Assembly: GCA_041390685.1 (NCBI GenBank)
Contig: JAWKPL010000001.1
Location: 556,141-620,140 of the forward strand
Direction: 5' to 3'
DNA from: Dehalococcoidia bacterium
GTDB lineage: Bacteria; Chloroflexota; Dehalococcoidia; UBA2979
DNA length: 64,000 nucleotides
Shown here: piece by piece, positions 2,264 to 31,972 of the stretch
Layout: each line of letters begins with the position of its first letter
Position numbering within the stretch: the stretch's first letter is position 1
Program-made: the position numbers and the translations under genes
Notes under the pieces: generated by a model
What the model was told of the DNA's origin: nothing
Databases searched by the model: none
The model's input: the letters and a program-made list of their open reading frames with translations, nothing else

Positions 2264-4540
2264 GTGGTCGCGACAGAGCCGTACAAGGTGGTAGGTACCC
2301 GGCCGGTGCGTCCGGACGGGGTGGACAAGGTGACGGGCCGCGCGATGTACGGCGCGGACGTGAAGATGCCAGGGCTGCTGTACGCGCGGGTGAAGCGGAG
2401 CCCGCACGCGCACGCGGTAATCAAGCGGATTGACACCTCGAAGGCGGAGGCGCTGCCGGGGGTGAAGGCGGTGGTGACGCGGGCGGACTTCCGGACGGCG
2501 CCGGAGGGGCTGGTCGACCTCGGCGAGGGGACGGGCAACCTCAAGTACATGCTCGACAACGTGTGCGCGAGCGACAAGGCGCTGTATCGCGGGCACGCGG
2601 TGGCGGCGGTGGCGGCGACGGACCTGCACATCGCGGAGGACGCGCTCGACCTGATCGAGGTGGAGTACGAGGTGCTGCCGCCGGTGCTGAACGTGCGCGA
2701 CGCGATGACGGAGAGCGCGCCGATCCTGCACGACGACCTGCGTACGGCGGAGATGATCAGCCTGTTCGAGCCGCCCACCCCAGGGGCGGGTCAGGCGACG
2801 AACGTCGCGAGCCACATGCGGCTGGCGCAGGGCGACATGGTGGCGGGGTTCGCGGAGGCGGACATCGTGCTCGAGCGGGAGTTCGAGACCTCGATGGCGC
2901 ACCAGGGGTACATCGAGCCGCACAACGCGACGGTGCTGTGGAACAAGGACGACGACATCACGGTATGGACGAGCACGCAGGGGCCGTTCTCGGTGCGGTC
3001 GGCACTGGCGGGGCTGCTCGACCACCCGGTGTCGAAGATCCGGGTGATGCCGGTGGAGATTGGCGGCGGGTTCGGTGGGAAGATCCCCGTGTACCTCGAG
3101 CCGTTCGCGGCGCTGCTGTCGAAGAAGTCGGGCGCGCCGGTGAAGATGTGGATGACGCGCGAGGAGGTGCTCGAGGCAACGGGGCCGACCTCGGGGACGT
3201 ACATGCGGGCGAAGCTGGGCGCGAAGCGTGACGGCACGATCACGGCGGCGGAGGTGTACCTGGCGTTCGAGGCGGGTGCGTACCCGGGGTCGCCGGTGGG
3301 CGCGGGCGTGATGTGCGCGGTGGCGCCGTACACGATCCCGAACGTGCAGGTGGACGGGTTCGACGTGGTGGTGAACCGGCCGAAGGTGGCAGCGTACCGC
3401 GGGCCGGGCGCGCCGCAGGCGGAGTTCGCGGTGGAGTCGGTCGTCGACGAGATCGCCGAAGAGCTGGGGATGGACCCGATCGACCTGCGGATGAAGAACG
3501 CGGCCGTCGAGGGGACGCGTCGCGCGGATGGGGTCGTCTTCGGACGCATCGGCAACGTGGAGGTACTGCAGGCGATCAAGGACAGCCCGCACTACCGAAG
3601 CGAGCTGGAGGGTGAGAACCGGGGTCGCGGCGTGGCGATCGGGTTCTGGTTCAACGTAGGCTTCGAGTCGGCGGCGTACGCCTCGGTGAACACGGACGGG
3701 ACGGTGGCGTTGACGACGGGGTCACCGGACATCGGAGGGACGCGGGCGGCGCACGCGATGCAACTCGCGGAAGCCCTCGGCATTCCGTACGAGGACGTGA
3801 AGCCGCACGTGGTGGACACGGACTCGATCGGATACACGAACGTGACAGGCGGCAGCCGAACGGCGTTCGCCGGCGGCTGGGCCGCGTACGAGGCAGCGAT
3901 GGACATCGCGCGGCAACTGGAGGCGCGGGCGGCGCACATCTGGGAAGTGGACGCCGGCAGCGTGCGGTACGAGGACGGGAAGCTGTCCGGGCCAGAGGGC
4001 CGGACGATGACGTTCAAGGAGATTGCCGCGCAGCTGCCGCACACCGGCGGCATGGTCCAGGGTCGTGCGAGCGTGAACCCGACGGAGGTTGGGCCCTCGT
4101 TCGCGGGGCACATCTGCGACGTAGAGGTCGACCCGGACACGGGGAAGGTGGAGATCCTGCGCTACACGGCGGTGCAGGACGTAGGGCAGGCGGTGCACCC
4201 CTCGTACGTCGAAGGGCAGATGCAGGGCGGGGCCTCGCAGGGCATCGGGATGGCGCTGAACGAAGAGTACTTCTACGACGAGAACGGCGTGATGCGGAAC
4301 TCGAGCCTGCTCGACTACCGGATGCCGACGGCACTGGACCTGCCGATGATCGACACGATCCTCGTGCAGGTGCCGAGCGAGGGGCACCCGTACGGTCTGC
4401 GCGGGGTGGGCGAGGTGCCGATCGTGCCGCCGATGGCGACCGTGTCGAACGCGATCTACCACGCGACGGGGCTGCGGATGCGGAAGCTTCCCGCCTCGCC
4501 ACGGGTGTTGCTGGACGAGCTGCTGGGGCCGGAGGCGTAA
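2264..4540 (+). CDS. Xanthine dehydrogenase family / aerobic CO-dehydrogenase CoxL-like molybdopterin-binding large subunit (758 aa), orphan
   Basis: Translation 'MVATEPYKVVGTRPVRPDGVDKVTGRAMYGADVK...' has typical Mo-hydroxylase large-subunit signatures throughout. GTG start 6 nt after GGAGG. No FAD or 2Fe-2S subunit genes adjacent. Confidence 0.85.
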   Translation: MVATEPYKVVGTRPVRPDGVDKVTGRAMYGADVKMPGLLYARVKRSPHAHAVIKRIDTSKAEALPGVKAVVTRADFRTAPEGLVDLGEGTGNLKYMLDNVCASDKALYRGHAVAAVAATDLHIAEDALDLIEVEYEVLPPVLNVRDAMTESAPILHDDLRTAEMISLFEPPTPGAGQATNVASHMRLAQGDMVAGFAEADIVLEREFETSMAHQGYIEPHNATVLWNKDDDITVWTSTQGPFSVRSALAGLLDHPVSKIRVMPVEIGGGFGGKIPVYLEPFAALLSKKSGAPVKMWMTREEVLEATGPTSGTYMRAKLGAKRDGTITAAEVYLAFEAGAYPGSPVGAGVMCAVAPYTIPNVQVDGFDVVVNRPKVAAYRGPGAPQAEFAVESVVDEIAEELGMDPIDLRMKNAAVEGTRRADGVVFGRIGNVEVLQAIKDSPHYRSELEGENRGRGVAIGFWFNVGFESAAYASVNTDGTVALTTGSPDIGGTRAAHAMQLAEALGIPYEDVKPHVVDTDSIGYTNVTGGSRTAFAGGWAAYEAAMDIARQLEARAAHIWEVDAGSVRYEDGKLSGPEGRTMTFKEIAAQLPHTGGMVQGRASVNPTEVGPSFAGHICDVEVDPDTGKVEILRYTAVQDVGQAVHPSYVEGQMQGGASQGIGMALNEEYFYDENGVMRNSSLLDYRMPTALDLPMIDTILVQVPSEGHPYGLRGVGEVPIVPPMATVSNAIYHATGLRMRKLPASPRVLLDELLGPEA

Positions 4541-11699: not shown

Positions 11700-12298
11700 C
11701 GGCGGCCGAGCGGCGCGGCGGGGAGATCGACGAGCACCCAGGGACCGACCAGCTGCGCCGACGGCTGTCGCGCGCGCTGGCCGGAGGCGCCGGGGCGCTG
11801 CTCCTCGTGCTGGCCGTGCTGGGGCTGGGGGGCGTGTCCAGCGGGGGTACGCCTACGGCGGCACCTCCGTTCGAGCTCGAGTTGCTGGAGGGGGGCCGCG
11901 TGACGAACGCGGACCTCGCGGGTCGGGTGGCGGTGATCAACGTGTGGGCATCGTGGTGCCCGCCGTGCCGGGAGGAAGCGCCGGCGTTGCGGCGGACGGC
12001 GGAGCGCTTTGCCTCGGAGCCGGTGGTGTTCCTCGGGGTGGTCCGCGACGATAGCGCGGAGGAAGCGCTGGCGTTCGCGCGGGAGTGGGGGCTGTCGTAC
12101 GCGCACGCGATGGGGGATGAGGCCTTTCTGTCCGACTTCGGGGCGCGGGGCATCCCCATGACCTACGTCCTCGACGCGAACGGGGGCGTCCTGGTGCGGC
12201 ATTACGGGCCGATCTCCGAATCGAAGCTCACGGCACTGATCGAGGACGCGCTGTCGCGTCCGGCCGGGGTCAACGGTCCCGTTGAGGACGCCTCGTGA
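11696..12298 (+). CDS. TlpA-like thioredoxin (WCPPC), membrane anchored
   Basis: GTG start overlaps the upstream stop (GTGA). TM segment then 'VAVINVWASWCPPCREEAP'. The preceding 87 aa of the track ORF are Gly/Arg-rich read-through. Confidence 0.7.
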   Translation: MTAAERRGGEIDEHPGTDQLRRRLSRALAGGAGALLLVLAVLGLGGVSSGGTPTAAPPFELELLEGGRVTNADLAGRVAVINVWASWCPPCREEAPALRRTAERFASEPVVFLGVVRDDSAEEALAFAREWGLSYAHAMGDEAFLSDFGARGIPMTYVLDANGGVLVRHYGPISESKLTALIEDALSRPAGVNGPVEDAS

Positions 12299-13032
12299 GT
12301 GGGGTTGTGGAGTTCGTGCAGGTGCGGGGGGAGTACGTCTCCTTCTTTCTCGTGCTGGCGATGCTATGGGCCAGCGGCGGGACGATCGCCCGGCTGGTGG
12401 GGCTTCCTCGACGGGCGGTGGGGGACCTGACGTTCAACGGCGCGGTGGCCTTCGTGGCCGTGGGGCGGCTCGGCTACCTCGCGACCGAGGCGCCGCGATC
12501 ACTCCTCGACCCGCTGGTGGTGATCCGGTTCCAGGCGGGCATTGAGCCGCTCGTGGGAGCGGCGGCGGTCGCAGCCGTGGCCGCCTGGCAGACACGAGGC
12601 CAGGATGCCGTCGCGCGGTGGGGGGTCGCGGGGGCGGCCTCGATCGGGCTGGCGGTGGCGACGGTGGGGTACGACGTCACGTGCGTGGTGCGTGACGCCT
12701 GCTACGGGGCGGCGGCTCCCGCGCCATTCGGGTTCGAGATGTCGGGGCTCAGTGAGCCGCGGATCGCGACGCCGCTGGTGGAGGCAACGTTGCTGATGGC
12801 GGCGGGGGCGGTGCTGCTGCGGATCGGAGGGCGGCTCACGGTGGCGACGGCAGCGCTGCTGCTGGGGACGCTGGCGCTCACGCGGGCAGCGCTGACTCCG
12901 GCGTCGGCACTGGGGGTGGAGGCGGTGGGCCTCGAAACGGTGGTGCTCGTCGTGGTGGGGATCCTGGCGGTGGGGTGGGCGATCGTCCTCGGCGGGCGCG
13001 GTACAGCGGCGGTGGATGGGTCGGCAGGGTAG
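12295..13032 (+). CDS. Hypothetical polytopic membrane protein, translationally coupled to the two thioredoxins
   Basis: 245 aa, about 6 TM segments, CxxxxxC ('TCVVRDAC') in a loop. GTG start overlaps the upstream stop (GTGA). Could be a MauE/DoxX-like partner, but I do not recognise the family. Confidence 0.5.
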   Translation: MSGVVEFVQVRGEYVSFFLVLAMLWASGGTIARLVGLPRRAVGDLTFNGAVAFVAVGRLGYLATEAPRSLLDPLVVIRFQAGIEPLVGAAAVAAVAAWQTRGQDAVARWGVAGAASIGLAVATVGYDVTCVVRDACYGAAAPAPFGFEMSGLSEPRIATPLVEATLLMAAGAVLLRIGGRLTVATAALLLGTLALTRAALTPASALGVEAVGLETVVLVVVGILAVGWAIVLGGRGTAAVDGSAG

Positions 13033-13095: not shown

Positions 13096-13770
13096 GTGCG
13101 TCTACGGAAGCCGCCACGTTCTGTCCCGAGGGTTGCAGGCGGGACGGCGTCCGCACCGAGCGCGCGTGGCCTGCTGCGGCGCTCGATCGAGCACCGCGTC
13201 CTGGCGGGAGCGCTGTCTACCGTGTTGGCGGCGGCCGTCATCGGGTCATGGGGCCTCGTTGGCGGATGGCTATCGAGGCCGGGGAACGCGGACGAGCTTT
13301 CGCCCACGGCGACGGCGACGCGGATGGCGACGGTCGACTATTCGGCTCTCGTCCGTCGTGCGAGCCTCGATCAGTGCGTCGCGATGACCAGCGCTATCGA
13401 TGGATTGCAGGCAGTGCTCGATGGAGACCCCGACATCGAACGTTCGCTGGAGAACGTGGAGGACGTGATCGGAGCGTTCAGAAGCACGATCGCGGCGCTT
13501 TCCGCGGTCGATCCCCCACCGGACTTCGCGCAGGATCACATCGAGTACGTCCGGTTGATCGACCAAGTGGCGGTGCACCTGTCGAACCTCCTGGCGGGCG
13601 CTCGCAAGGCCACCGCGGGAACACTACAGGCAGAGGCCTTGAACGAGATGATCAAGGCCACGGTGGTGCTCGCGGGGACGATGGAGCAACACGGCAGGCT
13701 CGTATCCGAGGAGTTCTCGCAGATGGCCAATCCGGTATCGGCGGAGGAGTGCCGAGCGCTCACCCAGTAG
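13096..13770 (+). CDS. Hypothetical secreted or membrane-anchored protein
   Basis: 224 aa, N-terminal hydrophobic segment, coding-like codon usage. No family match; the start is uncertain. Confidence 0.4.
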   Translation: MRLRKPPRSVPRVAGGTASAPSARGLLRRSIEHRVLAGALSTVLAAAVIGSWGLVGGWLSRPGNADELSPTATATRMATVDYSALVRRASLDQCVAMTSAIDGLQAVLDGDPDIERSLENVEDVIGAFRSTIAALSAVDPPPDFAQDHIEYVRLIDQVAVHLSNLLAGARKATAGTLQAEALNEMIKATVVLAGTMEQHGRLVSEEFSQMANPVSAEECRALTQ

Positions 13771-20592: not shown

Positions 20593-21061
20593 CGTTGCCT
20601 CGTTTCGTCGGGTGCTGTCGCCCGGTGATTATGGGGGACTAGGGCCGCATGGCGCTTCGCGCCGCCGTTCGTCGCCGCGGGCGGATTGCGGGGGACGTCC
20701 GCCGGCCAGGTGTGCGCTGTGCAAGCGATCCGACATGCGCGAGCGGCTTCGTTACGCGCTTCGCAAGTCGTCAGGGGCAAGACTCGGGACGGTGACGGGA
20801 GAGAGGAGCGCACGGATGGAAACGTTGATTGCCGGAGTCGGAGCCGCGGCGGTCCTTGCAGCGGCGGAGCTGGTGATCCGCGCTCGACGCTTCGAGGCGA
20901 TACTCCCGAGACTGCGAACCCAGGCGCGACGCCCCCGTGCGGCTTCGCGTGCAGCCGCGAACGGCACGGCGAGGGGACTGCGGGCGAGCCGGCAGAGCGG
21001 CTGACGGCGGGAGCAGGGCGGTATCGCGCGGCCGGGGTCCGAGGCCGGCGTCTCAGACGAT

Positions 21062-21613
21062 TCAAGGGACGAGCGCGGCCCATCGCTGGGCGAGGCCTGC
21101 CGGGGGGATCGGCGGCAGCGGGTCGTATCGAACACCAGCTTCAGCGGCGAGCCGCGCGGCGGTGCGCTCCGCTTCGTCCCAGCGGGAGGCGCAGACCTCG
21201 CGCCAGTGTGCGGAGCCGTGACGTGCGACCCATGCCTCGTAGTCCGCGAGCCAGCGGTACGCCTGCGCGAGCCGACCGGGTGCCGGCTCTTCCTCGGGAC
21301 CCTGAAGCGCCGCCCTCGGATCCGGAAACGCACCGCCCAATCGGGCGCCGGGACGCGCATGGGGAAGGCGGCCAGTACGCGGGAGGCTGATGGCGCCTGA
21401 GGCGTCGACGAGGAGCAGTCCGCCGCTCCAGAGCAGCACGGCAAGCCGACCGACCTCGTGCCAGTAGTAGCGGTTGTGTTCACCGGTGTCCCAGTGACCG
21501 CGGTGCAAGCCGTACCTGGTCAAGAGGTTCCCATCCGGGTGGCGGATGTCCTGCCCCCACAGCCAGCACTGCGCGTCCATTAGCTGGGAGCCGGTGAGTT
21601 CATTCGCCACCAC
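21062..21613 (-). CDS. Hypothetical Trp-rich protein
   Basis: ORF 21062..21643. GTG at 'VVANEL' preceded by AGGAGGAG. No family recognised. Confidence 0.4.
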   Translation of the reverse strand: MVANELTGSQLMDAQCWLWGQDIRHPDGNLLTRYGLHRGHWDTGEHNRYYWHEVGRLAVLLWSGGLLLVDASGAISLPRTGRLPHARPGARLGGAFPDPRAALQGPEEEPAPGRLAQAYRWLADYEAWVARHGSAHWREVCASRWDEAERTAARLAAEAGVRYDPLPPIPPAGLAQRWAALVP

Positions 21614-21786
21614 GGCGTGACTCCTCCTGCACATGGATGGCACCGCGCACCGCGCCGTGCAGTGTAGGGTCAGTACGCGCGCGCTGGCGAGGGAACGTGG
21701 TGGCGACGTCCGGCGTCGAAGCGGATGCCCGGGCCCCTCGGGAGCCCGGGCATCCGCTTCTGGTTGGGCGGGAACGTCCGACGCGG

Positions 21787-22563
21787 CTAGACGCGCTTTG
21801 TCATGGCGCGGCCGACTCCCGTGGCAGCGATGGCGATTCCCACACCGATGATCGCGAGTATGCCAGCAGGAGTGCGCGCGATCAGACCCGCGTTGCCGGT
21901 GCGCGGCGGCACGGGCTGCGCAGGCTGGGGTTGCGCAGGCTGAGGCTGCGCGGCCTTCGGCGCTTCGGCGGCCTGCGCTCCACTGTTTTCTGAGTGTGCT
22001 CCGCCTTCGCCGTGGACGAGAGCTTCAATCGCTGTCATGGCGTCCTGGGAAGAGACGCGCTTGTCGCGCCACTCGTGCACGAAATGGTCGATCTCCTCGA
22101 GGAGGCCGGCGCGCTGGGCCGCGGGTACTTCGTGGACGAGGTGGTCGATCTCAGCCATCGCCTCGTCAGCGGGGAGCGTGCCCTCGTCCCATTCGTGGAC
22201 GACGTGGTCAATGGACTGAATCGCCGCCGCCGCCTCGTCATCGTCATGATGTGCTCCGCCCTCGCCGTGGACGAGGGCTTCGATCGCGGTCATCGCGTCT
22301 TCTGATGAGACGCGCCCGTCACGCCATTCGTGCACGAAGTGGTCGATCTCCTCGAGGAGGCCGGCGCGCTGGGCCGCGGGTACTTCGTGGACGAGGTGGT
22401 CGATCTCGGCCATCGCTTCGTCAGCGGGGAGCGTGCCCTCGTCCCATTCGTGGACGACGTGGTCGATGGACTGGATCGCCGCTTCCTGAGCGGACACGGG
22501 GCCACCTGGTGCCAGCCCGAGCAACGCTACCACTGCCGCCGCGACCAGGAGTTGTCGCCTCAA
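21787..22563 (-). CDS. Secreted histidine-motif tandem-repeat protein with PQ-rich linker and C-terminal sorting-signal-like tail
   Basis: TTG start 9 nt after GGAGG gives a textbook signal peptide 'MRRQLLVAAAVVALLGLAPGGPVSA|QE'. Two 85-aa near-identical repeats each carry three 'IDHxVHEW/V' units plus 'VHGEGGAHHDDDE'. Then 'QPQPAQPQPAQP', then 'PPRTG'-hydrophobic-'KRV'. Confidence 0.7.
   Translation of the reverse strand: MRRQLLVAAAVVALLGLAPGGPVSAQEAAIQSIDHVVHEWDEGTLPADEAMAEIDHLVHEVPAAQRAGLLEEIDHFVHEWRDGRVSSEDAMTAIEALVHGEGGAHHDDDEAAAAIQSIDHVVHEWDEGTLPADEAMAEIDHLVHEVPAAQRAGLLEEIDHFVHEWRDKRVSSQDAMTAIEALVHGEGGAHSENSGAQAAEAPKAAQPQPAQPQPAQPVPPRTGNAGLIARTPAGILAIIGVGIAIAATGVGRAMTKRV
21973..22482. 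repeat. Direct tandem duplication, 2 x ~255 bp, inside the His-repeat gene
   Basis: The two protein repeats differ at only a few residues. Off-frame track ORFs 22035..22247 and 22290..22505 give near-identical peptides offset by 255 nt, so the repeat is also near-identical at the DNA level. Confidence 0.7.
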
Positions 22564-22695
22564 GTCTCTTGCCTCCAATACGCCTCTTGGCGCCGGGTGT
22601 TCAGCGGCCCGACGCGTCCGCAACCTCCTTATAAGTGAGTCTTGGTCTCAGTTCAAGGGGATGAGATGCCGTATCACCCGCGGGAAACGACCTCG

Positions 22696-23715
22696 TCAGC
22701 GGAGGTGAGCGACGAGGCTGCGCATGTTGAACCGGATGAGGTCGAGGTAGGTGGGGGCATCCTCGGTGAAGGCGTCGGTCATCAGGACGCCGACGGTGAT
22801 GCCCTGGTCGCGCGCGAGCTGGTCAAGGATCGACGACTCGTACTGGGGTTCTCGGAAGACCGCCGGGACGCCGGCCTGCTCCACGCGGTCGTAGAGGGAC
22901 GCCAGGGCGGCAACGGAGGTCTCGCCTTCCCCATCGGATGGGAGGATGGAGCCGAGGACCTCGAACCCGAAACGCGCGGCCAGGTAGCCGTACGCGTCGT
23001 GCTGGACGACCAGGACGCGGCGAGCGGGCGGGATGGTCTGGATGGCGGCTTCCATCTCCGCGTCGAGGGCGCGGACCTGGGCGGCGTACCGTTCGCCGTT
23101 CGCGCGATAGAGGTCTTCGCCTTCCGGGTCGACCGACGCGAGGCCGGTGGCGATGACGGGGATCAGCTCGATCACGCGTTGAGGATCGAGCCAGAAGTGG
23201 GGATCTCCGCCCCGGTAGTCGTGGGTGTGGTCGCCGTGATCGACGACCAGGTCGCGGATGATGACATCGATGGAGTCGGTGACGACGAGGGTCGGAAGGG
23301 CGGCTTCGCGCGCGGCGCGGCGCCAGGCCGTCCGCTCCGCGAACGCCTCGAAGTGGCCGCCCACGGTGATGAGGTAGTCCGCCTCGACGAGACGCACAAG
23401 ATCCTGCGGCGTGACCTCGTAGTCGTGGGGGTTGCTGCCGGGAGGGGTGACGGACCAGACCTCGATGCGTCCTCGGCCGATGTTCTGGACGATGTCGGCG
23501 AGCACGGCGAATGAGACTGCGACCAGCTTTTGGTCGCCACCGTGAGTCGATGACCCGGCGTCCTGAGCGGCGGCCGGCTGACCGGCGGACGGAGCATCGG
23601 AGGCGGGTGAGGCAGGGCCGGACGAGGCGCCGCCAGAGCCACACGCAGCGAGGACGGACGCGACGCAGAGCATCGCGCAGACGGCACCCCACTGAAGCAG
23701 CCGCCGGACCAACAT
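22696..23715 (-). CDS. ZnuA/AdcA-like metal ABC transporter substrate-binding lipoprotein (339 aa), orphan
   Basis: Lipobox 'VLAACGSG', cluster-9 binding-protein fold, and the His/Asp-rich loop 'DHGDHTHDYRGGDPHFW' typical of zinc-specific ZnuA. The N-terminal 280 aa of the track ORF are Arg-rich read-through. No permease or ATPase adjacent. Confidence 0.75.
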   Translation of the reverse strand: MLVRRLLQWGAVCAMLCVASVLAACGSGGASSGPASPASDAPSAGQPAAAQDAGSSTHGGDQKLVAVSFAVLADIVQNIGRGRIEVWSVTPPGSNPHDYEVTPQDLVRLVEADYLITVGGHFEAFAERTAWRRAAREAALPTLVVTDSIDVIIRDLVVDHGDHTHDYRGGDPHFWLDPQRVIELIPVIATGLASVDPEGEDLYRANGERYAAQVRALDAEMEAAIQTIPPARRVLVVQHDAYGYLAARFGFEVLGSILPSDGEGETSVAALASLYDRVEQAGVPAVFREPQYESSILDQLARDQGITVGVLMTDAFTEDAPTYLDLIRFNMRSLVAHLR

Positions 23716-23822
23716 CTCGCTCCCCCTCGGCGCCAATGATACCGAGTATCGACTTTTTCGGACAAGCGGCGACGCCGGGAGCGACGGCCCGGGAGCCAGG
23801 CGGGTCGACCGGGAGCAGGAGG

Positions 23823-25094
23823 TCAGCGGGCGAGATCGATGGGGCGCGGCAGCCGCAGGGCCACGGCAAAGAGGAGGAGGGACGCGGCGAACGTGCCCAT
23901 GAACATGAGCAGGGCCCAGTCGTAGCTGCCGGTGGCGTCGTAGATGGCGCCGGCCAGCGTCGGACTCAGGATCTGACCGAGGGTCTCCACGACGGCGACG
24001 GCTCCGAGGATGGTCGCGAAGTGGCTCAACCCGAAGGCGCGTGTGAGGAGGAGCGCCTCCATCATCGGACCGCCGGCGGTGCCGACGACCCAGAGGGTCA
24101 GAAAGAGCCCGATTGCTGCCGGGCTGGTGCTGATGGTGAGTGTGGCCATGGCTCCCGCCAGGCAACCTGCCAGCGCCAGCGCCGCGTACTCGAAACGGGG
24201 GATGCGGTCGGCGGCGAGTCCGACGAGCATCCTCGTCGCGATGCTGAGGCCGGCGGTGACCGAGACGATGGTGGCGGCGGTCCGGCGGGAGATGCCGTTG
24301 GCCTCGTAGAAGGGAACCTGGTGCACCAACCAGCCGAAGAGGCCGAAGAAGAAGAGCATCAGCGCGAGCGAGAGCGTCCAGAAGAGGGGTGAGCGGAGCG
24401 CCTCTCGGAGGGTGACGCCTGACAGGGGCTCCTCGGGAAGGCCTCCTGGCGCCGAGGCGCCGCCGGTGTCGACATCGTACCGACCGACGGGCGCGTTGCG
24501 GACGACGAACAGGCCGATGGACGTGAAGACGACGGCGACAGCGACACCGGACCACAGGAGCGCGCCTCGCCAGCCGGCTAGGTCGATCAACGCCCCCATG
24601 ACGGGGAGCACGAGGAAGCCGCCGAGGGAGAAGCCGGTGCCCAAGATACTAACGGCGATGCCACGACGGCGGTCGAACCAGCGTGAGATGAGCGCCATGA
24701 ACGGGATGAAGAACATCAACGTGCGCGCGACGGCGTTGAGCGTGGAGTAGCAGTACCACTGCCAGAGCTCCTGCGTGGTCGCCAGAAGCAGATAGGTCGC
24801 AGCCGTCGCGACACCGCCGACGATGATGGCGGACCGCGCCCCGCGCTGATCCACCCACCGCCCGACGAGGGGGCCGCAGAGGCCGCTGACGAGCAGCGAG
24901 ACGGAGAACGCGAAGGAGACCTCCGAGCGGGACCAGCCGAACTCGGCTTCGAGCGGGCGGACGTAGAGGCCGAAAGCCCACATCGATACGCCGCTGCCGA
25001 GCGCCATCGCGGCGACGGAGGCCGCGAGGATCCACCATCCGTAGTAGACCGAGCGTGGCCGGCGGATGACGCCAGCAGCGGACGCGACACGCAC
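23823..25094 (-). CDS. MFS transporter (OFA-like), paralog of 13828..15147
   Basis: GTG start at 'VRVASAAGVIRRPRSVYYGWW' preceded by GAAGGAG and a 6-nt spacer. 12 TM segments. Confidence 0.75.
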   Translation of the reverse strand: MRVASAAGVIRRPRSVYYGWWILAASVAAMALGSGVSMWAFGLYVRPLEAEFGWSRSEVSFAFSVSLLVSGLCGPLVGRWVDQRGARSAIIVGGVATAATYLLLATTQELWQWYCYSTLNAVARTLMFFIPFMALISRWFDRRRGIAVSILGTGFSLGGFLVLPVMGALIDLAGWRGALLWSGVAVAVVFTSIGLFVVRNAPVGRYDVDTGGASAPGGLPEEPLSGVTLREALRSPLFWTLSLALMLFFFGLFGWLVHQVPFYEANGISRRTAATIVSVTAGLSIATRMLVGLAADRIPRFEYAALALAGCLAGAMATLTISTSPAAIGLFLTLWVVGTAGGPMMEALLLTRAFGLSHFATILGAVAVVETLGQILSPTLAGAIYDATGSYDWALLMFMGTFAASLLLFAVALRLPRPIDLAR

Positions 25095-25349
25095 TGGCGG
25101 CTCCTTCGACGCGGGTGATCCGCGATCGATCGGGAGGACTGCGGAGAAGATAGCATTCGGGCGGAAGGCCAGGCGCAACTCGGGCGTGTCCGAGCGTCTC
25201 GTGCGATCGCAGCCCAGCGATGCGAGGGTGCAGGACCTCAAGCGGCGGTGATCGGCGGCGGCTTCACCGACAACGGGGCGACGGCAGGCCCGCAGGCCGG
25301 GGGCGTACGCAGGCCGAGAACGGCAGGCGGTTACGGCGCGGCCAGGGGA

Positions 25350-25985
25350 TCAGCCGGGAGGGGTAGGACGTTCCAAGACCGTCCAGCGATAGCCACGTTG
25401 CCGCACGGTGCGTATCTCGAGCGAGGGGAGGCGCCGGAGCTTGTGGCGGAGTCGATAGAGATGCGCCTCGATGGCGCGCCGTTCGACTTCGGGGTGCCCG
25501 AGTGCTCGTGCCAGCGTCTGGGGCGTGACCGGCCGGCCCGCTCCCTCCATGAGGCAGCCGAGGAGACGCACCTCCGAGGCCGACAGGGGGACGAACGCGG
25601 ACCCGTGCTGGAGCCCGTCCGGGGTCAGCTCGGGCTGAACAGGCGACTCGGAGCGGCGCATTGCGCGGGCGCGGGTCGCGCGCCACAGGATCTCCTCGCG
25701 CGAGGCGCCGACGAAGACTAGATCGTCAGAGCGCGTTGTTATGTCCTGCATCGGCGTGACAGGATCGAACATGCGCAGGCAGAGATAGCCAGCGTCGGCG
25801 GCCGCTTCCTCGAGGAGACACTGGCCGGGGTGGGCCATGACCAGGACGACGGCGGAGGGTGGAACCCTGGTCAGTTCTCGCGAGGAGATGCCGGAGAGCG
25901 CTTCCGGTACGTTCGCCCGCACGAACTCGGGGACACGCTGTCCGATCGCGAGGGTGATGTCGTTCCGACGGTCGTCCGCCGTCAT
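25350..25985 (-). CDS. Winged-helix (OmpR/PhoB-type) DNA-binding regulator with atypical N-terminal domain
   Basis: C-terminal 'LSASEVRLLGCLMEG...YRLRHKL...RGYRW'. The N-terminal domain lacks clear receiver motifs. Confidence 0.55.
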   Translation of the reverse strand: MTADDRRNDITLAIGQRVPEFVRANVPEALSGISSRELTRVPPSAVVLVMAHPGQCLLEEAAADAGYLCLRMFDPVTPMQDITTRSDDLVFVGASREEILWRATRARAMRRSESPVQPELTPDGLQHGSAFVPLSASEVRLLGCLMEGAGRPVTPQTLARALGHPEVERRAIEAHLYRLRHKLRRLPSLEIRTVRQRGYRWTVLERPTPPG

Positions 25986-26202
25986 GGCGCTCCTCCACCG
26001 CACATGGTGTGCTCACGCCTTTACGACCATGAGTCATCCCGATGAACTTCTCGTTTCACGCGCGGGGGGCGGCGATCCTGTGACCAAAGTGTGTGAATCA
26101 AGTCACAAGCGCTTCACGCCCCGGCCTCCCTGACGTAACAGGGCGTAACTAGCCTGCCTCCATCGCAGCCCCGCGAGACAGCGAGGGCCGAGAGGAGGCG
26201 AG

Positions 26203-27270
26203 ATGGTCACCGCCACTGAAACACCGCGCGTGGGCGAGGCCGATGCGGACGTCACGAGGCCGGAACCGCTGCTCGCTGTGCGGAACCTCGTGACCGAGTT
26301 CAGGACATCGGGCGGGTGGCTGCGCGCGGTCAACGACGTCTCGTTCGAGGTGGAACGCAGCGAGGTGCTGGCGATCCTCGGGGAGTCGGGGTCAGGGAAG
26401 AGCGCGCTGCTCCGCACGATCCTGGGGATTCAACCACGGACCGCGCGCGTCTCGGGACAGGTGCTGATCGAGGGTCGCGACGTGCTCGCGATGGCAGCAG
26501 CGGAGCGCGAGGTGGTCCGGGGATCGCAGGTGTCGATGATCTTCCAGGACCCGCTGACGGCGCTCGACCCTCTGTTCACGGTCGAACAGCAGATCGTGGA
26601 GACCTTGCGCCGGCATACGGCGCTCACGAAGGCGGCGGCGCGCGAGCGCGCACTCGAACTGCTCAACCTCGTGCAGATCCCGTCACCGGAACGACGCCTT
26701 GAGGCGTACCCGTTCGAGCTCAGCGGGGGGATGCGGCAGCGGGTGGTGATCGCGATCGCGCTGGCCTGCAATCCGCGTTTGCTGCTCGCGGACGAACCGA
26801 CCACGGCGCTCGACGTCACGGTGCAGGCGCGAGTGCTCTCGCTGCTGGCGGACCTCCAACGGCGGCTCGGGATGGGCGTGGTGCTCGTCACGCACGACCT
26901 CACGGTGGCCGCGTCCGTGGCGGACCGGGTGGCGGTGATGTACGCGGGGCGGATCGTCGAGCGCGGGCCAATCCGGGAGATCGTCCGGCGGCCGTCTCAC
27001 CCTTATACGCGCGGCCTGCTGGACGCGAACATCCGACCGGGGCAGCGCGAACGGCCGGAGGCGATCGCGGGCGCGCCGCCGAACCTGGCACACCTGTCCG
27101 GGGGGTGCGCCTTCGCTCCTCGATGTCCGGTATCAGTCGACGGCTGCTTCGAAGAGCAGCCCCAGTTCGTGCTGGTCGGCCCGGACCACGCGGCTCGCTG
27201 CCTGATCGCAGAGGCCGACGTGGTCGGGGCCGGTGGCGGAGCAACAGCGAAAGGACTCCAGGGTGGCTGA
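26203..27270 (+). CDS. Peptide/nickel ABC transporter ATP-binding protein (DppD/OppD-like)
   Basis: Walker A 'GESGSGKS', signature 'LSGGMRQR', C-terminal oligopeptide-transporter extension. Confidence 0.85.
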   Translation: MVTATETPRVGEADADVTRPEPLLAVRNLVTEFRTSGGWLRAVNDVSFEVERSEVLAILGESGSGKSALLRTILGIQPRTARVSGQVLIEGRDVLAMAAAEREVVRGSQVSMIFQDPLTALDPLFTVEQQIVETLRRHTALTKAAARERALELLNLVQIPSPERRLEAYPFELSGGMRQRVVIAIALACNPRLLLADEPTTALDVTVQARVLSLLADLQRRLGMGVVLVTHDLTVAASVADRVAVMYAGRIVERGPIREIVRRPSHPYTRGLLDANIRPGQRERPEAIAGAPPNLAHLSGGCAFAPRCPVSVDGCFEEQPQFVLVGPDHAARCLIAEADVVGAGGGATAKGLQGG

Positions 27271-28942
27271 TTTCTTGAAACGGCGGTGGGCGCTCGGGTT
27301 ACAGACGGGAGCGGCGACGGTCATCGGGCTGCTGCTGCTGGCCTGTGGCGCGTCGGACACGGGCGAGGGCGGCGCCGGTGGCGCGGCGCAGTCCGAGAGC
27401 GGCGACGCGACGGCGGCCACTGACCAGTCCGGCAGCGGCGGGACGCTCCGCATCGCGATGTCCGCGGGGAACATCCCGATCCCGGACCAGTTCCCGACCG
27501 AGGGCGGCGAAGGGCGGCGCTTTGTCGGCGTCAACGTGTACGACGCCCTCGTGAACTGGGACACCGACCAGGGTGACGCGCCGCCGGGTGTGGTGCCGGG
27601 ACTGGCGGAGTCGTGGAGCCGCTCCGAGGACAACCTCACGTGGACGTTCAAGCTCCGGCAGGGGGTGACGTTCCACGACGGCACGGCGTTCGATGCGGAC
27701 GCGGTGATGTTCGCGTTCGACCGGCTGATGAAGAAGGACTTCGAGTTCTACTCGGAGACGCAGCGGGGATCCGGGGCGAGCAACATCGCGGCGATCGCGA
27801 GCTACGAGAAGATCGACGCCCAGACGGTGGCGTTCACGACGAACAAGCCGTGGTCGTTCTTCCTATACGACCTGGCGTTGATCAACATTCCCAGCCCGAC
27901 CGCCATACGGACGTACGGCAACAAGGAGTACCCGCGCCACGCGAGCGGGACCGGGCCCTTCAAGATCGACAAGTACGTCGACGGCCAGGTGATGGAACTG
28001 GTCCCGAACACGGCGTACTGGGGCCGCGTCCCGAAGCTCGAGCGGCTGATCTTGCTGCCGATGCCGGAGCCCGCGACTCGCCTCGCCGCACTGCAGTCGG
28101 GGCAGGTCGACTGGGCGGAAGTGCCGCCGCCGGATGCGATCGAGCAGCTTCGGGCGTCCGGCTACAACGTGCTCCTGAAGTCCTACCCGCACGCGATCTA
28201 CTACGGGTTCAACACGTATCGGGCGCCGTTCGACGACCCGAAGGTCCGCCAGGCGGTCGCCTACGGCATCGACCGCGAGGGGATGGTCGCGATCATCCAG
28301 GGCGCGGGCGGGCCGGCGACGCAGCTCATGTACGAGGGCAACCCGTGGCGTGACCCGACGTTCGAGGGCTACAGCTACGACCCGGACAAGGCGCGCGCAC
28401 TGCTGGCCGAGGCGGGCAAGTCGAGCGGCCTGAAGATCACGGTCGCGTACCCGACCGGCGGCTCCGGGAACATGTGGCCCGGCCCGATGAACGAGAAGTT
28501 CCAGCAGGACATGCGTGACATCGGGATCCAGGTGGACCTGGTGCCCCTCGAATGGAACACGGTAATTGCACTGTACCGAGCGGGGCTGGCGTCACCGGAC
28601 TACAGCAAGTACGACGCGTTCTACTTCTCGCCCAACACGCAGGCGCCGCTGCTCGCGTTCGCCTCGTACCTCACGGAGCGCATCCCGCCGGCGGGGTGCT
28701 GCAACGCCACGGGTTGGTCGAGCGCGGACGCGGACGCGCTCTTCAAGCAGGCGGCAAACACGTTCGACGACGCGGCGCGGGACCAGCTACTGGCGCAGTT
28801 CGAGGGACTGATGATGCGCGATGCGCCCATCGCCCCGGTCGTCCATGACCTGAACCTGCGCGTCCTCTCGCCCAAGGTCCGCGGGTGGATCCAGCCGCAG
28901 TCCTGGTGGGGCGACTTCACCAGCGTGTGGATGAAGGACTGA
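27263..28942 (+). CDS. ABC transporter substrate-binding protein, family 5 (DppA/OppA-like), lipoprotein
   Basis: 'LLLLACGASD' lipobox and SBP_bac_5-like sequence. GTG at 27263 after AAGGA is the start chosen; 27233 is an alternative. Confidence 0.8.
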   Translation: MADFLKRRWALGLQTGAATVIGLLLLACGASDTGEGGAGGAAQSESGDATAATDQSGSGGTLRIAMSAGNIPIPDQFPTEGGEGRRFVGVNVYDALVNWDTDQGDAPPGVVPGLAESWSRSEDNLTWTFKLRQGVTFHDGTAFDADAVMFAFDRLMKKDFEFYSETQRGSGASNIAAIASYEKIDAQTVAFTTNKPWSFFLYDLALINIPSPTAIRTYGNKEYPRHASGTGPFKIDKYVDGQVMELVPNTAYWGRVPKLERLILLPMPEPATRLAALQSGQVDWAEVPPPDAIEQLRASGYNVLLKSYPHAIYYGFNTYRAPFDDPKVRQAVAYGIDREGMVAIIQGAGGPATQLMYEGNPWRDPTFEGYSYDPDKARALLAEAGKSSGLKITVAYPTGGSGNMWPGPMNEKFQQDMRDIGIQVDLVPLEWNTVIALYRAGLASPDYSKYDAFYFSPNTQAPLLAFASYLTERIPPAGCCNATGWSSADADALFKQAANTFDDAARDQLLAQFEGLMMRDAPIAPVVHDLNLRVLSPKVRGWIQPQSWWGDFTSVWMKD

Positions 28943-28945
28943 GCG

Positions 28946-29890
28946 ATGCTCGTGATGCTCGTGCGGCGCCTGGCGATGGTCGTACCCACGCTGCTCGGTG
29001 TCTCGATCGTGGTGTTCCTACTGATGAGCGTCCTGCCAGGGGATCCCCTGGCAGGGCTGCTCGCCCAGGACGCGAGCGCGGCGGACCGGGCGGCGCTCGA
29101 GCAGAGCATGGGCCTGGACGACCCGTTGCCGGTGCGTTACGTGCACTGGCTCGGGGATGCGCTGACGGGAGACTTCGGGTACTCCCCGTACCGGCGGCGC
29201 GACGTTGCCGACCTGCTGGGGACGGCCTTTCGGAACACGTTGCAGCTGGCGGTGGCCTCGGCGGCGGTCGGCATCGGACTGGGGGTGGCTCTCGGGACGA
29301 TCGCGGCGGTGCACCGGGGACGTCTCCTCGACCGACTGGTCTCCGTGGTCGCGATGACGGGGATCAGCGTGCCTTCGTACTGGGTGGCGATCCTGCTGAT
29401 CATCGTGTTCTCCGCGAATCTGCACTGGCTGCCCGCCGGAGGCATGAGCAGCGGGGGCGGGGGTCTCCTCGACACGTTGAAGCACCTCGTGATGCCGGCG
29501 TTCGCCAGCGCGTTCGTATCGATCGGCGTCACGGCACGCATGATGCGCGCCAGCCTGCTGGAGACGTACGGGCAGGACTTCGTCGACACGCTGCGGGCGA
29601 AGGGGCTGACGGGCCGGCAGATCCTCTGGCACGTGGCGAAGAACGCGGCGTCGCCGGTGCTGACCGTCGCCGGCCTCCAGGTCGGGTTCCTGCTCGGGGG
29701 ATCCGTGTTGATCGAGACGATCTTCTCGTGGCCGGGCCTTGGTCAGCTCATCTTCCAGGCGATCAGCGCGCGCGACTTCCGAGTGATCCAGGCCGGGATC
29801 CTCGTCGTGGCCGTGACGTTCGTCCTCGTCAACCTCGTCGTGGACCTGCTGCAGCTGGTGATCGACCCGCGGCTGCGGAAGGCCGCCTGA
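28946..29890 (+). CDS. ABC transporter permease (DppB-like)
   Basis: 314 aa, 6 TM segments, BPD-transporter signature region. Confidence 0.85.
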   Translation: MLVMLVRRLAMVVPTLLGVSIVVFLLMSVLPGDPLAGLLAQDASAADRAALEQSMGLDDPLPVRYVHWLGDALTGDFGYSPYRRRDVADLLGTAFRNTLQLAVASAAVGIGLGVALGTIAAVHRGRLLDRLVSVVAMTGISVPSYWVAILLIIVFSANLHWLPAGGMSSGGGGLLDTLKHLVMPAFASAFVSIGVTARMMRASLLETYGQDFVDTLRAKGLTGRQILWHVAKNAASPVLTVAGLQVGFLLGGSVLIETIFSWPGLGQLIFQAISARDFRVIQAGILVVAVTFVLVNLVVDLLQLVIDPRLRKAA

Positions 29891-29922
29891 ACCAGCCGTT
29901 GCTGGACGGAAGGAGTCGCAGC

Positions 29923-30825
29923 ATGGTCGCCATCACCACGCCTACCCGCGCGAAGCGGCCGGCGGACGAGACGCTGGTCGCGCCGCGCTCGTACCTCGGG
30001 GAAGTGCGAGTCCGCTTCATGACGAAGCGGGCGGGCGTCGGGGCGCTGGGCGTGCTCGCGGTCATCGCCGTGACGGCTGTGGCTGCCCCGTTGCTGACGC
30101 CACACGACCCTCTCGCCGGCCGCGCGACGGAGCGGCTGCTCCCGATCGGGGCGGCCGGACACCTCCTCGGGACTGACGAGCAGGGCCGGGACATGCTGAC
30201 GCGTCTGCTGTACGCGGGGCGGCTGTCGCTGGTGACGGGGACGATGCCCGTCCTGATCGCGACGATCCTGGGCACAGCGATCGGCGCCACCGCGGGCTAC
30301 CTGCGGGGGCCGCTGGGCGCGGTGTTGATGCGCTCAATGGACATGCTGTACGCGTTCCCGGCGGTCATGCTCGCAATCGCGGTCGCGGCGTCGCTTGGGC
30401 CAGGGGTGAACAACTCGATCCTCGCGATCAGCATCGTGTTCATCCCGCCGATCGCGCGGGTCGCGGAGGCCGCCACGCGACGCGTTGTGCTCCTCGAATA
30501 CATCGAAGCGGCGCGGCTGAGCGGAGCAAGCACGGCGCGGATCATCGTGTCGCAGGTGCTGGCGAACATCTTCAACCCGATCTTCGTGTACGCGTCTGGG
30601 CTGGTGGGGCTGAGCATCGTGATCGCCTCGGGCCTCAGCTTCCTGGGGCTGGGGGCGGCCCCGCCGACGCCGGAGTGGGGATACATGCTCAACAGCCTGC
30701 GAGGCGCGATTTACACGCAGCCGTGGGTCGCGGTCCTGCCCGGGCTCTTCATCTTCGCCACATCGATGGCCTGCAACGTGGTGAGCGACGCGCTACGCGA
30801 CGCGCTCGACGTGAAGGACGCGTAG
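29923..30825 (+). CDS. ABC transporter permease (DppC-like)
   Basis: C-terminal 300 aa of ORF 28885..30825. ATG 7 nt after AAGGAG. Confidence 0.8.
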   Translation: MVAITTPTRAKRPADETLVAPRSYLGEVRVRFMTKRAGVGALGVLAVIAVTAVAAPLLTPHDPLAGRATERLLPIGAAGHLLGTDEQGRDMLTRLLYAGRLSLVTGTMPVLIATILGTAIGATAGYLRGPLGAVLMRSMDMLYAFPAVMLAIAVAASLGPGVNNSILAISIVFIPPIARVAEAATRRVVLLEYIEAARLSGASTARIIVSQVLANIFNPIFVYASGLVGLSIVIASGLSFLGLGAAPPTPEWGYMLNSLRGAIYTQPWVAVLPGLFIFATSMACNVVSDALRDALDVKDA

Positions 30826-30865
30826 CCGACGGCTGAGCCGAGGTGAGCAACGGAAGGAAGTGGCC

Positions 30866-31972
30866 ATGGCAACGCCGACAGGGACGCCCGTATCGACCTC
30901 GACCACGTGGGGAAGCACCACCGGGTTCAGCACCCAGTCGCCGCGTGAGCTCGTGCATGCGGATGTGCTACTGCGAGTGGCCGGGCTGTCGAAGGACTTC
31001 CCGGTACGCCTCGGGGTGCGCGCGCGGGGAGTGCTCTCGGCCGTCGACAACGTGTCCTTCGCGGTGCGCGCGGGCACGACGGTTGGCATCGTCGGGGAGT
31101 CCGGATGTGGGAAGTCGACGACCGCACGCCTGATCCTCGGCCTGATCGAGCCTGACCGCGGGTCGATCGAGTTCGAGGGGGTGGACATCCGCACCCTGGA
31201 CCGGGTGCAACGGCGAGCGGTGAAACGCAACATGCAGATGGTCTTTCAGGATCCGTACTCGGCGCTCAATCCGCGCATGTCGGTCGGGGCGAGCATCGCC
31301 TTCCCCATGGCCGTGCATGGCATGCCGCGCAAGGAGCAGCGCGAGCGAACGGCGATGCTCCTGCAGCAGGTCGGACTGCATCCGAACCACGCCTCGTACT
31401 ACCCGCACCAGATGAGCGGCGGACAGCGGCAGCGGGTGAACATCGCCCGCGCGCTGGCGCTGGAGCCGCGGCTCGTGATTGCGGACGAGGCGGTGTCCGC
31501 GCTCGACAAGTCGGTGCAGGCACAGGTGCTGAACCTGCTCACCGACCTGCAGGAGCGTCTGGGGCTGACCTATCTGTTCATCAGTCACGACCTGAACGTC
31601 GTGCAGTACGTCGCGGACCGGGTGATCGTCATGTACCTCGGACAGGTGGTCGAAGACTGTCCGTCGGACGAGCTGTACGCCCGTCCGCTGCACCCGTACA
31701 CGCAGGCGCTGCTGGCCTCGATCCCGGACATCGACCCGGACCGTCCGGCGCCCGCCGGCCTCGAGGGGGACGTCCCGAGCCCGCTCAACCCCCCCTCGGG
31801 GTGCCGGTTCCGGACGCGGTGCCCCGCGGCGATGGCGGTGTGCGGCGAGGAGCGGCCGGAGCTGCTCGAGGCGGAGCCGGGCCACCTCGTGGCGTGCCAC
31901 CTGTTCGACCGCGCGTCGCCGGCACGGGCGGCGCCGGAGCCAGCGCAGGGAGTCGCCATGGCCAACGCGTGA
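30866..31972 (+). CDS. Peptide ABC transporter ATP-binding protein (DppF/OppF-like)
   Basis: Walker A 'GESGCGKST', signature 'MSGGQRQR'. ATG after GGAAGGAAG. Confidence 0.85.
   Translation: MATPTGTPVSTSTTWGSTTGFSTQSPRELVHADVLLRVAGLSKDFPVRLGVRARGVLSAVDNVSFAVRAGTTVGIVGESGCGKSTTARLILGLIEPDRGSIEFEGVDIRTLDRVQRRAVKRNMQMVFQDPYSALNPRMSVGASIAFPMAVHGMPRKEQRERTAMLLQQVGLHPNHASYYPHQMSGGQRQRVNIARALALEPRLVIADEAVSALDKSVQAQVLNLLTDLQERLGLTYLFISHDLNVVQYVADRVIVMYLGQVVEDCPSDELYARPLHPYTQALLASIPDIDPDRPAPAGLEGDVPSPLNPPSGCRFRTRCPAAMAVCGEERPELLEAEPGHLVACHLFDRASPARAAPEPAQGVAMANA

Follow-up and report, generated by a model that had tools for sequence, protein, structure and literature searches.

A tandemly duplicated histidine-rich helical module encoded beside znuA in a Dehalococcoidia bacterium: an apparent accessory of zinc import

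Introduction

A stretch of 64,000 nucleotides from a Dehalococcoidia bacterium (GenBank assembly GCA_041390685.1, contig JAWKPL010000001.1, positions 556,141 to 620,140 of the forward strand; referred to below as the window) carries on its minus strand, at 21787..22563, a gene for a His-rich protein in which a domain of 85 amino acids (aa) occurs twice in tandem. This locus raises the question of what the repeated domain does, and of how and when it was doubled. The duplication by itself is ordinary. The domain, on the other hand, seems to be a hitherto undescribed helper in zinc import: its gene lies beside that of a ZnuA-family lipoprotein, related modules are inserted into the His-rich loop of ZnuA proteins of other taxa, and an operator-like palindrome is found at the promoters of both genes. 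On balance, the product is probably a surface-anchored protein that captures zinc and hands it to ZnuA, is induced at zinc limitation and carries an old tandem duplication of its domain.

The module gene and its product

The features of the gene and its product are as follows (coordinates are those of the window throughout, unless a locus is named; HMM, hidden Markov model).

21787..22563, minus strand: gene of the His-module protein (258 aa, stop codon included), delimited from the list of open reading frames (ORFs), from the reading of ribosome-binding site and start codon, and from the N-terminal alignment to the orthologue in locus L001
22486..22563, minus strand: putative Sec-type signal peptide MRRQLLVAAAVVALLGLAPGGPVSAQ, recognised by eye; a comparable hydrophobic leader stands at the N-terminus of every stand-alone homologue
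22250..22482, minus strand: repeat copy A, conserved core of unit 1; predicted four-helix bundle with three DHxVHE helices and a degenerate IEALVH helix (unit HMM 121.8 bits)
22228..22249, minus strand: inter-unit tail HDDDEAA, rich in His and Asp, with which unit 1 ends; homologues have His/Asp-rich tails at this place
21995..22227, minus strand: repeat copy B, conserved core of unit 2; 92.3% DNA identity to copy A, 2 aa differences (unit HMM 121.2 bits)
21973-21994: tail of unit 2, SENSGAQ, diverged
21910..21972, minus strand: Ala/Pro/Gln-rich linker, including a 15-bp tandem repeat
21790..21909, minus strand: C-terminal anchor, composed of PPRTGNAGL, a hydrophobic helix and basic RAMTKRV, resembling a sortase sorting signal or a tail anchor
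21718..21760, minus strand: terminator-like hairpin with a perfect GC-rich stem of 20 bp and no U-tract, 27 nt past the stop codon (-58 kcal/mol, z = -5.6)

The likely start codon is TTG at 22563-22561, which is preceded at a distance of eight bases by GGAGG (22576-22572) and agrees with the ATG-started orthologue in L001. The start chosen by the ORF finder (TTG 22623) is probably too far upstream, as both the position of the ribosome-binding site and the alignment to L001 favour 22563. A twin-arginine translocation (Tat) signal was considered on account of the RR in the leader, and was set aside because the RR is not conserved in the homologues. At the other end of the protein, the AlphaFold2 (AF2) model places a helix at residues 232-255, and the anchor itself consists of PPRTG, 25 hydrophobic residues and RAMTKRV. 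When ten family members were aligned over this region, the consensus P-A-x-T-G-N-A-G-L was obtained, followed by a transmembrane helix and GAR..R; P0012 carries the canonical LPKTGNAGL. The product is thus read as an exported protein that would be tethered to the surface by its PxTG, transmembrane and basic anchor on a P/Q-rich stalk, possibly with processing by a sortase. The mature ectodomain (198 aa) contains 17 His, 42 Asp plus Glu and no Cys, and has an isoelectric point of 4.5.

A second, shorter repeat is present in the same gene (15 bp, 21913-21951, 2.6 copies, 87% matches) and encodes the PQPAQ repeats of the stalk. The hairpin downstream of the gene was equalled in folding by 0 of 200 shuffled sequences; it was missed by a consensus terminator scanner because it has no U-tract.

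Anatomy of the repeat

A single array with a period of 255 bp was reported by Tandem Repeats Finder (TRF), at 21995-22482 (1.9 copies, 92% matches, 0 indels, score 850), and it lies inside the minus-strand gene 21787..22563 with its copies in frame. On self-comparison of the DNA, 217 of 240 positions matched in the best 240-nt window at an offset of 255, as against at most 103 of 240 at the other offsets from 240 to 270; the 255-bp periodicity is far above chance. Both results bear out the in-frame tandem duplication within a His-repeat gene that had been proposed in an initial annotation made from the letters alone, and the description of the host protein as His-rich, surface-type and genuinely duplicated is likewise supported. 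The span given there, 21973-22482, corresponds to exactly 2 x 255 bp and takes in the seven-codon end of unit 2, where conservation between the copies is lost.

The best ungapped pair of copies, 22250-22482 (A) and 21995-22227 (B), is identical at 215 of 233 nt; these 92.3% stand just above the 90% below which the initial annotation would have given up the repeat. Its wording of near-identical DNA copies was too strong: the repeat itself holds, but at 92% identity the copies differ at 18-19 nt, with about 0.39 synonymous substitutions per synonymous site (dS). Its two residue differences, on the other hand, were given correctly. Apart from the tails, G to K (RDG/RDK) and E to Q (SED/SQD) are the only differences between the 78-residue protein cores of A and B. 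The full 85-aa units are 91% identical to each other, and their seven-codon tails have diverged (HDDDEAA in unit 1, SENSGAQ in unit 2), with 0.97 non-synonymous substitutions per non-synonymous site (dN).

Fold and conserved residues of the unit

A substructure of three subrepeats of about 28 aa, as had been suggested for each unit, was not found. The autocorrelation within the unit has its maximum at an offset of 40 aa (window unit, 15 identities; mean of 13 family units, 17.8) and a weak peak at 21 aa, whereas an offset of 28 aa gives three identities and a negative BLOSUM mean. The two halves of the unit align with 14 of 30 identities (E 9e-10). In an AF2 model computed from the single sequence without an alignment, the predicted local distance difference test (pLDDT) exceeds 90 over both units, and four helices are placed in each of them (residues 23-41, 47-59, 69-81 and 87-98 in unit 1; 107-126, 132-144, 154-166 and 172-183 in unit 2). 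According to this model, the 85-aa unit is made of two helical hairpins of 40 aa, i.e., of four helices. Every helix bears I-[DE]-x-x-x-H; the fuller motif D-H-x-V-H-E does recur three times per unit, and the fourth helix holds a degenerate copy, I-E-A-L-V-H (IEALVHGEG).

Conservation was judged from an alignment of 13 family units. The most conserved positions outside the core are one His per helix (H12, H33, H52 and H73) and the Asp/Glu four residues before it; these His, as well as D8 and D48, are invariant or nearly so. By heptad reasoning, these residues would occupy b and f positions, outside the hydrophobic stripe of I, V and W; because they lie beside this stripe, the conserved pairs should be surface-exposed i/i+4 metal-binding pairs.

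Neither Pfam nor NCBIfam holds a family for the window protein or its homologues, a sequence search of the PDB returned no relative of the window protein, and with Foldseek against the PDB the best E value was 1.3, the fold searches returning generic four-helix bundles alone. The hairpin helix-E-D-G-x-h-T/S-helix (P0002, P0003, P0005, P0009 and, in the window, residues ~46-80 of the 278-aa ORF) gives sub-threshold matches to the small subunit of exodeoxyribonuclease VII (XseB) of up to 36.7 bits (E 2.9e-9), and other helical hairpins also match below threshold; the similarity to XseB is probably a structural convergence of helical hairpins.

Relatives: stand-alone modules and modules within ZnuA

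An exhaustive HMMER search of 1.84 billion representative proteins (E <= 1e-3) returned just 23 relatives. Six of them (P0018-P0023; Big_2/Flg_new surface proteins of 957-2506 aa, E 5e-6 to 8e-4) were excluded as uncertain. A word-indexed protein search with either the window protein or the 13-unit alignment gave no match, the exact protein of the window is absent from a collection of 15 billion proteins, and metagenomes, scanned once by alignment and once with the degenerate DNA pattern for IDHxVHEWxDG, gave no match to the window repeat. None of the collections searched yielded a close relative.

The relatives are of two types. Stand-alone members are proteins of 157-220 aa built from a signal peptide, a single unit, a tail rich in His and Asp and an anchor of the same kind as in the window protein, which is the only member of this type with two units; where a source name is given, it reads "hypothetical protein [Chloroflexota bacterium]". 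In the embedded type, the module (E 1e-31 to 3e-7) is inserted one to three times into ZnuA-family substrate-binding proteins (SBPs). In P0001, P0006, P0007, P0011 and P0014-17 the insert occupies the His-rich loop and directly precedes the ligand motif DPHxW, and the modules are flanked by classical loop sequence rich in His, Asp and Glu. The copy numbers are:

P0006: one module copy
P0014: two module copies
P0001: three module copies
P0007: three module copies
P0015, P0016 and P0017: two half-units each

The nearest solved relatives of the module-bearing SBPs are the zinc-specific AdcA, YcdH and ZnuA, and one fused member is annotated at its source as "zinc transport system substrate-binding protein". 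Module and ZnuA loop stand in a fusion/fission relation. Judged from the sequences, the window protein has one true homology link, to the modules that lie within the His-rich loop of ZnuA proteins, and these provide the strongest functional link as well.

Two degenerate embedded copies, which have lost most of their His, were also found in long ZnuA proteins of 490-495 aa (L084 2562-4049, L087 4401-5876, L088 2598-4070). A His-rich stand-alone module is encoded in the same operon as the long ZnuA, and embedded and free modules may interact.

Linkage to znu genes

In the window, the module gene is located 132 nt downstream of the following gene on the same strand.

22696..23715, minus strand: gene of a ZnuA-family metal-binding lipoprotein (lipobox LAAC; start ATG 23715; Pfam ZnuA 5.7e-68)

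The module gene adjoins znu genes in eight of nine informative loci. Locus by locus, the neighbourhoods are:

L001 (best genome match): ZnuA directly upstream; one-unit module orthologue, 53% identity
L084-86 (P0005): Fur-family, ZnuA, ABC_tran and ABC-3 genes upstream
L088 (P0010): Fur-family, ZnuA, ABC_tran and ABC-3 genes upstream
L087 (P0009): ZnuA upstream
L090 (P0010) and L092 (P0013): ABC-3 upstream
L082 (P0003): ZnuA divergent
L083 (P0004): ZnuA divergent, weak match
L081 (P0002): no znu gene in a contig of 1.8 kb
L091 (P0012): contig too short for a neighbour, and outside the count for this reason

In L082 and L083, the upstream gene on the minus strand was recognised by Pfam and tblastn as a ZnuA-family gene that is transcribed divergently. 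When genomes were scanned with the window ZnuA, the best match was in a Dehalococcoidia metagenome-assembled genome (60% identity), followed by Sphaerobacteraceae and Thermomicrobiales.

When the window ZnuA was aligned to MntC, His was found where this Mn-type protein has Glu220, and the Asp is kept. Read from this alignment, the ligand set would be 3His+Asp, as in AztC and TroA, a set which we take to be one for zinc from established knowledge of the family. A short loop of the protein, VDHGDHTHDY, holds three His.

Promoter and operator-like palindrome

The regulatory elements upstream of the two genes are:

22628..22656, minus strand: promoter-like element of the module gene, identified by reading, with -35 TTGAAC (22656-22651), a spacer of 17 nt and -10 TATAAG (22633-22628)
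22636..22650: palindrome B, TGAGACCAAGACTCA (gene strand), in the promoter spacer of the module gene
22662..22676: palindrome A, TGATACGGCATCTCA (gene strand), just upstream of the -35 element of the module gene
23737..23751: third palindrome, CGATACTCGGTATCA (gene strand), overlapping the znuA promoter TTGTCC-18-TATCAT

A consensus promoter scanner missed TTGAAC-17-TATAAG because the final base of its -10 element is G. The promoter block is conserved in L001, though the flanking proteins are just 53-60% identical. Across the related loci, the 15-bp palindrome has the form TGA(G/T)A(C/T)-N3-(A/G)T(A/C)TCA (TGAKAY-N3-RTMTCA). When the 64 kb of the window were scanned with this degenerate pattern at no more than one mismatch, three matches were found, all at the promoters of the module gene and znuA; 0.49 were expected, and three were reached in 0 of 100 shuffled sequences. 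All of ten independent loci have one or two such boxes 53-142 nt upstream of the start codon of the module gene. Upstream of znuA, boxes are likewise present in L084 and L088, where a Fur-family gene is adjacent, and in L001. Taken together, palindromes at module genes and at znuA in related loci lie at L001 5489-5531, L084 2512-2550 and 5881-5895, L087 5883-5918, and L088 2539-2553 and 5902-5937. The background density of matches, in 1.29 Mb of unrelated loci, is 0.034 per kb.

The palindrome is likely to be the operator of a zinc regulator of the Fur family (Zur), and is put forward as a candidate on the strength of its form and its positions. Rfam gave no match in 21000-25500, and the conserved 5' region accordingly belongs to no known class of riboswitch. 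The literature was searched for Zur boxes in Chloroflexi and for the palindrome, and neither was found described; a literature search on the module motif returned nothing relevant.

Proposed function and its alternatives

The following course of events is proposed. At zinc limitation, an operator of the Zur type, common to the promoters of the module gene and the adjacent znuA, would be vacated, and the module gene would be transcribed from its own promoter. The protein would be exported and anchored, with the stalk holding out two acidic four-helix bundles, on which exposed Asp/Glu-His pairs, additional His and the His/Asp tail would bind Zn2+ reversibly and with moderate affinity. The ion would then be passed to the neighbouring AztC-like ZnuA lipoprotein of high affinity by way of its 3-His loop. 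The module would act in trans as the His-rich loop of ZnuA does in cis, and doubling of the domain would double capture capacity, valency and reach.

Several observations weigh against this proposal. The palindrome is richer in GC than the Zur boxes established in other phyla, which are AT-rich (PMC3087516), and its half-site consensus was refined after the sites had been seen. No znuB, znuC or fur/zur gene was found within the 64-kb window, and the 1.8-kb contig of L081 lacks a znu gene. The best NCBIfam match of the window ZnuA, to AztC, is below the cutoff (218 bits), and in overall similarity this protein comes out split between AztC (Zn-type) and MntC (Mn-type). As an anchor motif, PPRTG departs from the canonical LPXTG, and no NCBIfam anchor model matches the C-terminus of the window protein. 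Finally, the embedded copies in the 490-495-aa ZnuAs of L084 and L087 do without most His, so that the fold may also, or instead, serve protein-protein contacts.

The last point leads to the chief alternative, in which the helical module is mainly a docking or regulatory scaffold that would hold ZnuA at the cell surface, gate its loop or pair with embedded modules, the His being secondary. It would explain why copies of the L084/L087 type keep IDxxVH and an R in the loop between helices 2 and 3 yet have lost most His, and it suits both the His-rich stand-alone copy in the operon of the long ZnuA and the recurrent sub-threshold matches to the small subunit of ExoVII, an oligomerising helical hairpin. 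The stand-alone members, however, conserve above all, outside the core, the one His per helix and the Asp/Glu four residues before it, most members carry His/Asp-rich tails after the unit, and the fused modules are placed within, and flanked by, classical His-rich loop sequence. A role chiefly in docking is therefore considered unlikely.

Capture of another metal (Mn, Ni, Co or Cu), or a general surface buffer or store for divalent cations, would be compatible with the patches of His, Asp and Glu, which are not metal-specific, and would be in line with Mn-type MntC being the best solved match of the window ZnuA and with the UreG/HypB-like GTPase ORF just upstream of znuA in L001. It is quite unlikely in view of the His, rather than Glu, at the third ligand position of the window ZnuA, of the zinc-specific proteins nearest to the fused relatives, of the source annotation of one of these as a zinc transport protein, and of the linked transporters, which are of the ZnuA/ABC-3 type with a Fur-family regulator.

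Comparison with known zinc hand-off systems

In function, the window protein would be most like PhtD of the pneumococcal pair PhtD-AdcAII, an analogy drawn from gene order and general build. PhtD of Streptococcus pneumoniae is reported to bind Zn2+ and to pass it on to AdcAII (PMC3842936). Like the window protein, PhtD is a surface-exposed protein with a repeated His motif, encoded directly downstream of the gene of a ZnuA-family zinc lipoprotein, and such a co-directional gene next to ZnuA is found in the window, L001 and L087. The two are nevertheless unrelated in sequence and fold: Pht proteins contain HxxHxH triads, whereas the window protein has D-H-x-x-H-E/[DE]xxxH in helical bundles and gave no match to Pfam Strep_his_triad at E <= 1. 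The hosts differ also (Firmicutes for Pht, Chloroflexota for the window protein), and the anchor of the window protein is C-terminal.

In AztC, a flexible loop with three His (D-loop) is essential for the acceptance of zinc from the chaperone AztD (PMC7463823). The likeness consists in an accessory extracytoplasmic protein encoded together with an AztC-type SBP, and the window SBP, which matches the AztC model best, has a 3-His loop and the 3His+Asp ligand pattern. AztD, however, is a soluble beta-propeller, in contrast to the helical, anchored tandem domain of the window protein, which gave no match to the NCBIfam AztD model; the operon structure of aztABCD is absent from the window, with no permease or ATPase gene nearby.

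ZinT/YodA and PA4063 of P. aeruginosa are described as zinc-binding proteins of the periplasm that assist ZnuA, stand under the control of Zur and are induced when zinc is limiting (PMC8561739). As small exported His-rich accessory proteins of ZnuABC they resemble the role proposed for the module protein; they are lipocalin-like and ferredoxin-like, respectively, and soluble, unlike the helical and anchored window protein, for which no sequence similarity to ZinT or PA4063 was found in Pfam, NCBIfam or the PDB.

The window ectodomain shares its richness in His, Asp and Glu with the His-rich loops of ZnuA and AdcA, into which homologous modules are inserted in other taxa. Classical loops, however, are short and disordered, whereas the module is predicted to be a folded domain of 85 aa, and in the window it forms a separate anchored and duplicated polypeptide in place of an insert before DPHxW of the SBP.

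The actinobacterial 'anchored repeat' ABC (ATP-binding cassette) system comprises the TIGR03772 SBP and an LPXTG repeat protein. As its composition is generally described, it also combines a metal-type SBP with a cell-wall-anchored repeat protein. The window SBP reaches 145 bits against TIGR03772, below the cutoff of 350, and the window repeat protein matches none of the models of this system. By motif, fold and family models, the window protein is not a member of the Pht, AztD or ZinT families.

Age, selection and origin of the duplication

Between the two copies, 17 codons differ, 15 of them synonymously and two non-synonymously. The method of Nei and Gojobori gave dS 0.39, dN 0.017 and a ratio dN/dS (omega) of 0.04; both copies are under strong purifying selection. 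The longest identical run is 68 nt, and the differences are distributed unevenly along the core (Fisher p = 4e-4):

5' part of the core, 141 nt: 4 differences, dS 0.14
3' part of the core, 93 nt: 15 differences, dS 1.08

With dS at 0.39 overall and 1.08 in the 3' part, the duplication is not recent, contrary to what the initial annotation had proposed. It is specific to the lineage of the window, because the copies share 91% of their residues over 85 aa, far more than they have in common with any relative (<=56%). The mosaic of divergence suggests an old domain duplication, probably by unequal recombination of one whole protein domain, in which the 5' two-thirds were partly re-homogenised by gene conversion. 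Of the concerted evolution and slippage that had been suspected, the former is in keeping with this mosaic and with partial conversion, and the latter is at odds with in-frame copies of 255 bp and an omega of 0.04. Within other members of the family, copies are often very similar (P0001 units 1 and 2, 90%; P0007 units, 85-91%; P0016 half-units, 100%), and the module has for this reason been amplified in tandem repeatedly and independently.

This recurrence, together with the surface-type protein and the differing number of units in the family (one in the other stand-alone members, one to three in ZnuA-embedded forms), could be taken in favour of the reading in the initial annotation, i.e., a recently expanded, slippage-prone surface repeat acting as a contingency locus that flips its copy number between strains. 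Contingency loci that work by simple-sequence phase variation depend on a hypermutable tract of 1-9 nt which alters the reading frame or the promoter spacing. A repeat of 255 bp is no such tract, and no simple-sequence tract accompanies it; two in-frame copies at 92% identity, with the above dS values and omega, form a stable domain duplication, and the other stand-alone members all have one unit. A contingency locus is very unlikely on these grounds. Least credible of all is an assembly artefact in which one unit was wrongly expanded to two. Assemblers of short reads can go wrong at repeats of such a length (255 bp), but two units produced in error would be the same throughout, whereas these differ in a selection-shaped pattern (18 differing positions, 15 of them synonymous, a fully diverged tail of seven codons and the frame kept).

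Other features of the window and of L001

The window has a G+C content of 69%, and the high G+C gives rise to long shadow ORFs antisense to real genes, e.g., 22642-23514 on the plus strand opposite znuA. Upstream of the block formed by a gene of the major facilitator superfamily (MFS), znuA and the module gene lies a five-gene ABC transporter of the Opp/Nik type (26203-31972, plus strand; ATPase, family-5 SBP, permease(s) and ATPase), and likewise just upstream of this block is a winged-helix (Trans_reg_C) regulator (25350-26003, minus strand). Three ORFs with a coding-like G+C content at third codon positions (21062-21643, minus strand; 12295-13032 and 13096-13770, plus strand) belong to no Pfam family; the first of them, which follows the module gene directly and encodes 193 aa, has no NCBIfam match either.

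In L001, two ORFs upstream of znuA have no counterpart in the window. The first (2820-4016) has a UreG/HypB-like GTPase motif fused to an uncharacterised C-terminal region, and the second (4021-4302) encodes an exported Cys-rich protein of 93 aa and stands before znuA.

Conclusion

The way in which ZnuA-type importers collect scarce zinc, and the role of His-rich loops therein, are still debated. To our knowledge, few zinc helper proteins have been recognised (ZinT, AztD and Pht), all of them from well-studied pathogens or model bacteria. More tentatively than the zinc-capture role of the window protein, it is proposed that the module could represent a new domain family, a folded and modular 'His-rich loop' of zinc ABC importers, used either in cis, inserted and amplified in ZnuA, or in trans, as a Zur-controlled anchored antenna in Chloroflexota. 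With ZinT, AztD and Pht counted as three, extracytoplasmic zinc hand-off might then have a fourth solution, unrelated to them in structure, in which copy number would tune capture, and the palindrome might be a hitherto unreported Zur box of this Chloroflexota lineage.

The locus points to a small folded domain that serves in some proteins as the loop and elsewhere as an anchored polypeptide of its own. As natural variants with one, two and three units and with half-units exist, the role of the loop in cis and in trans is directly testable in vitro, and the palindrome offers, for a phylum that has been little studied, a candidate operator responsive to zinc.

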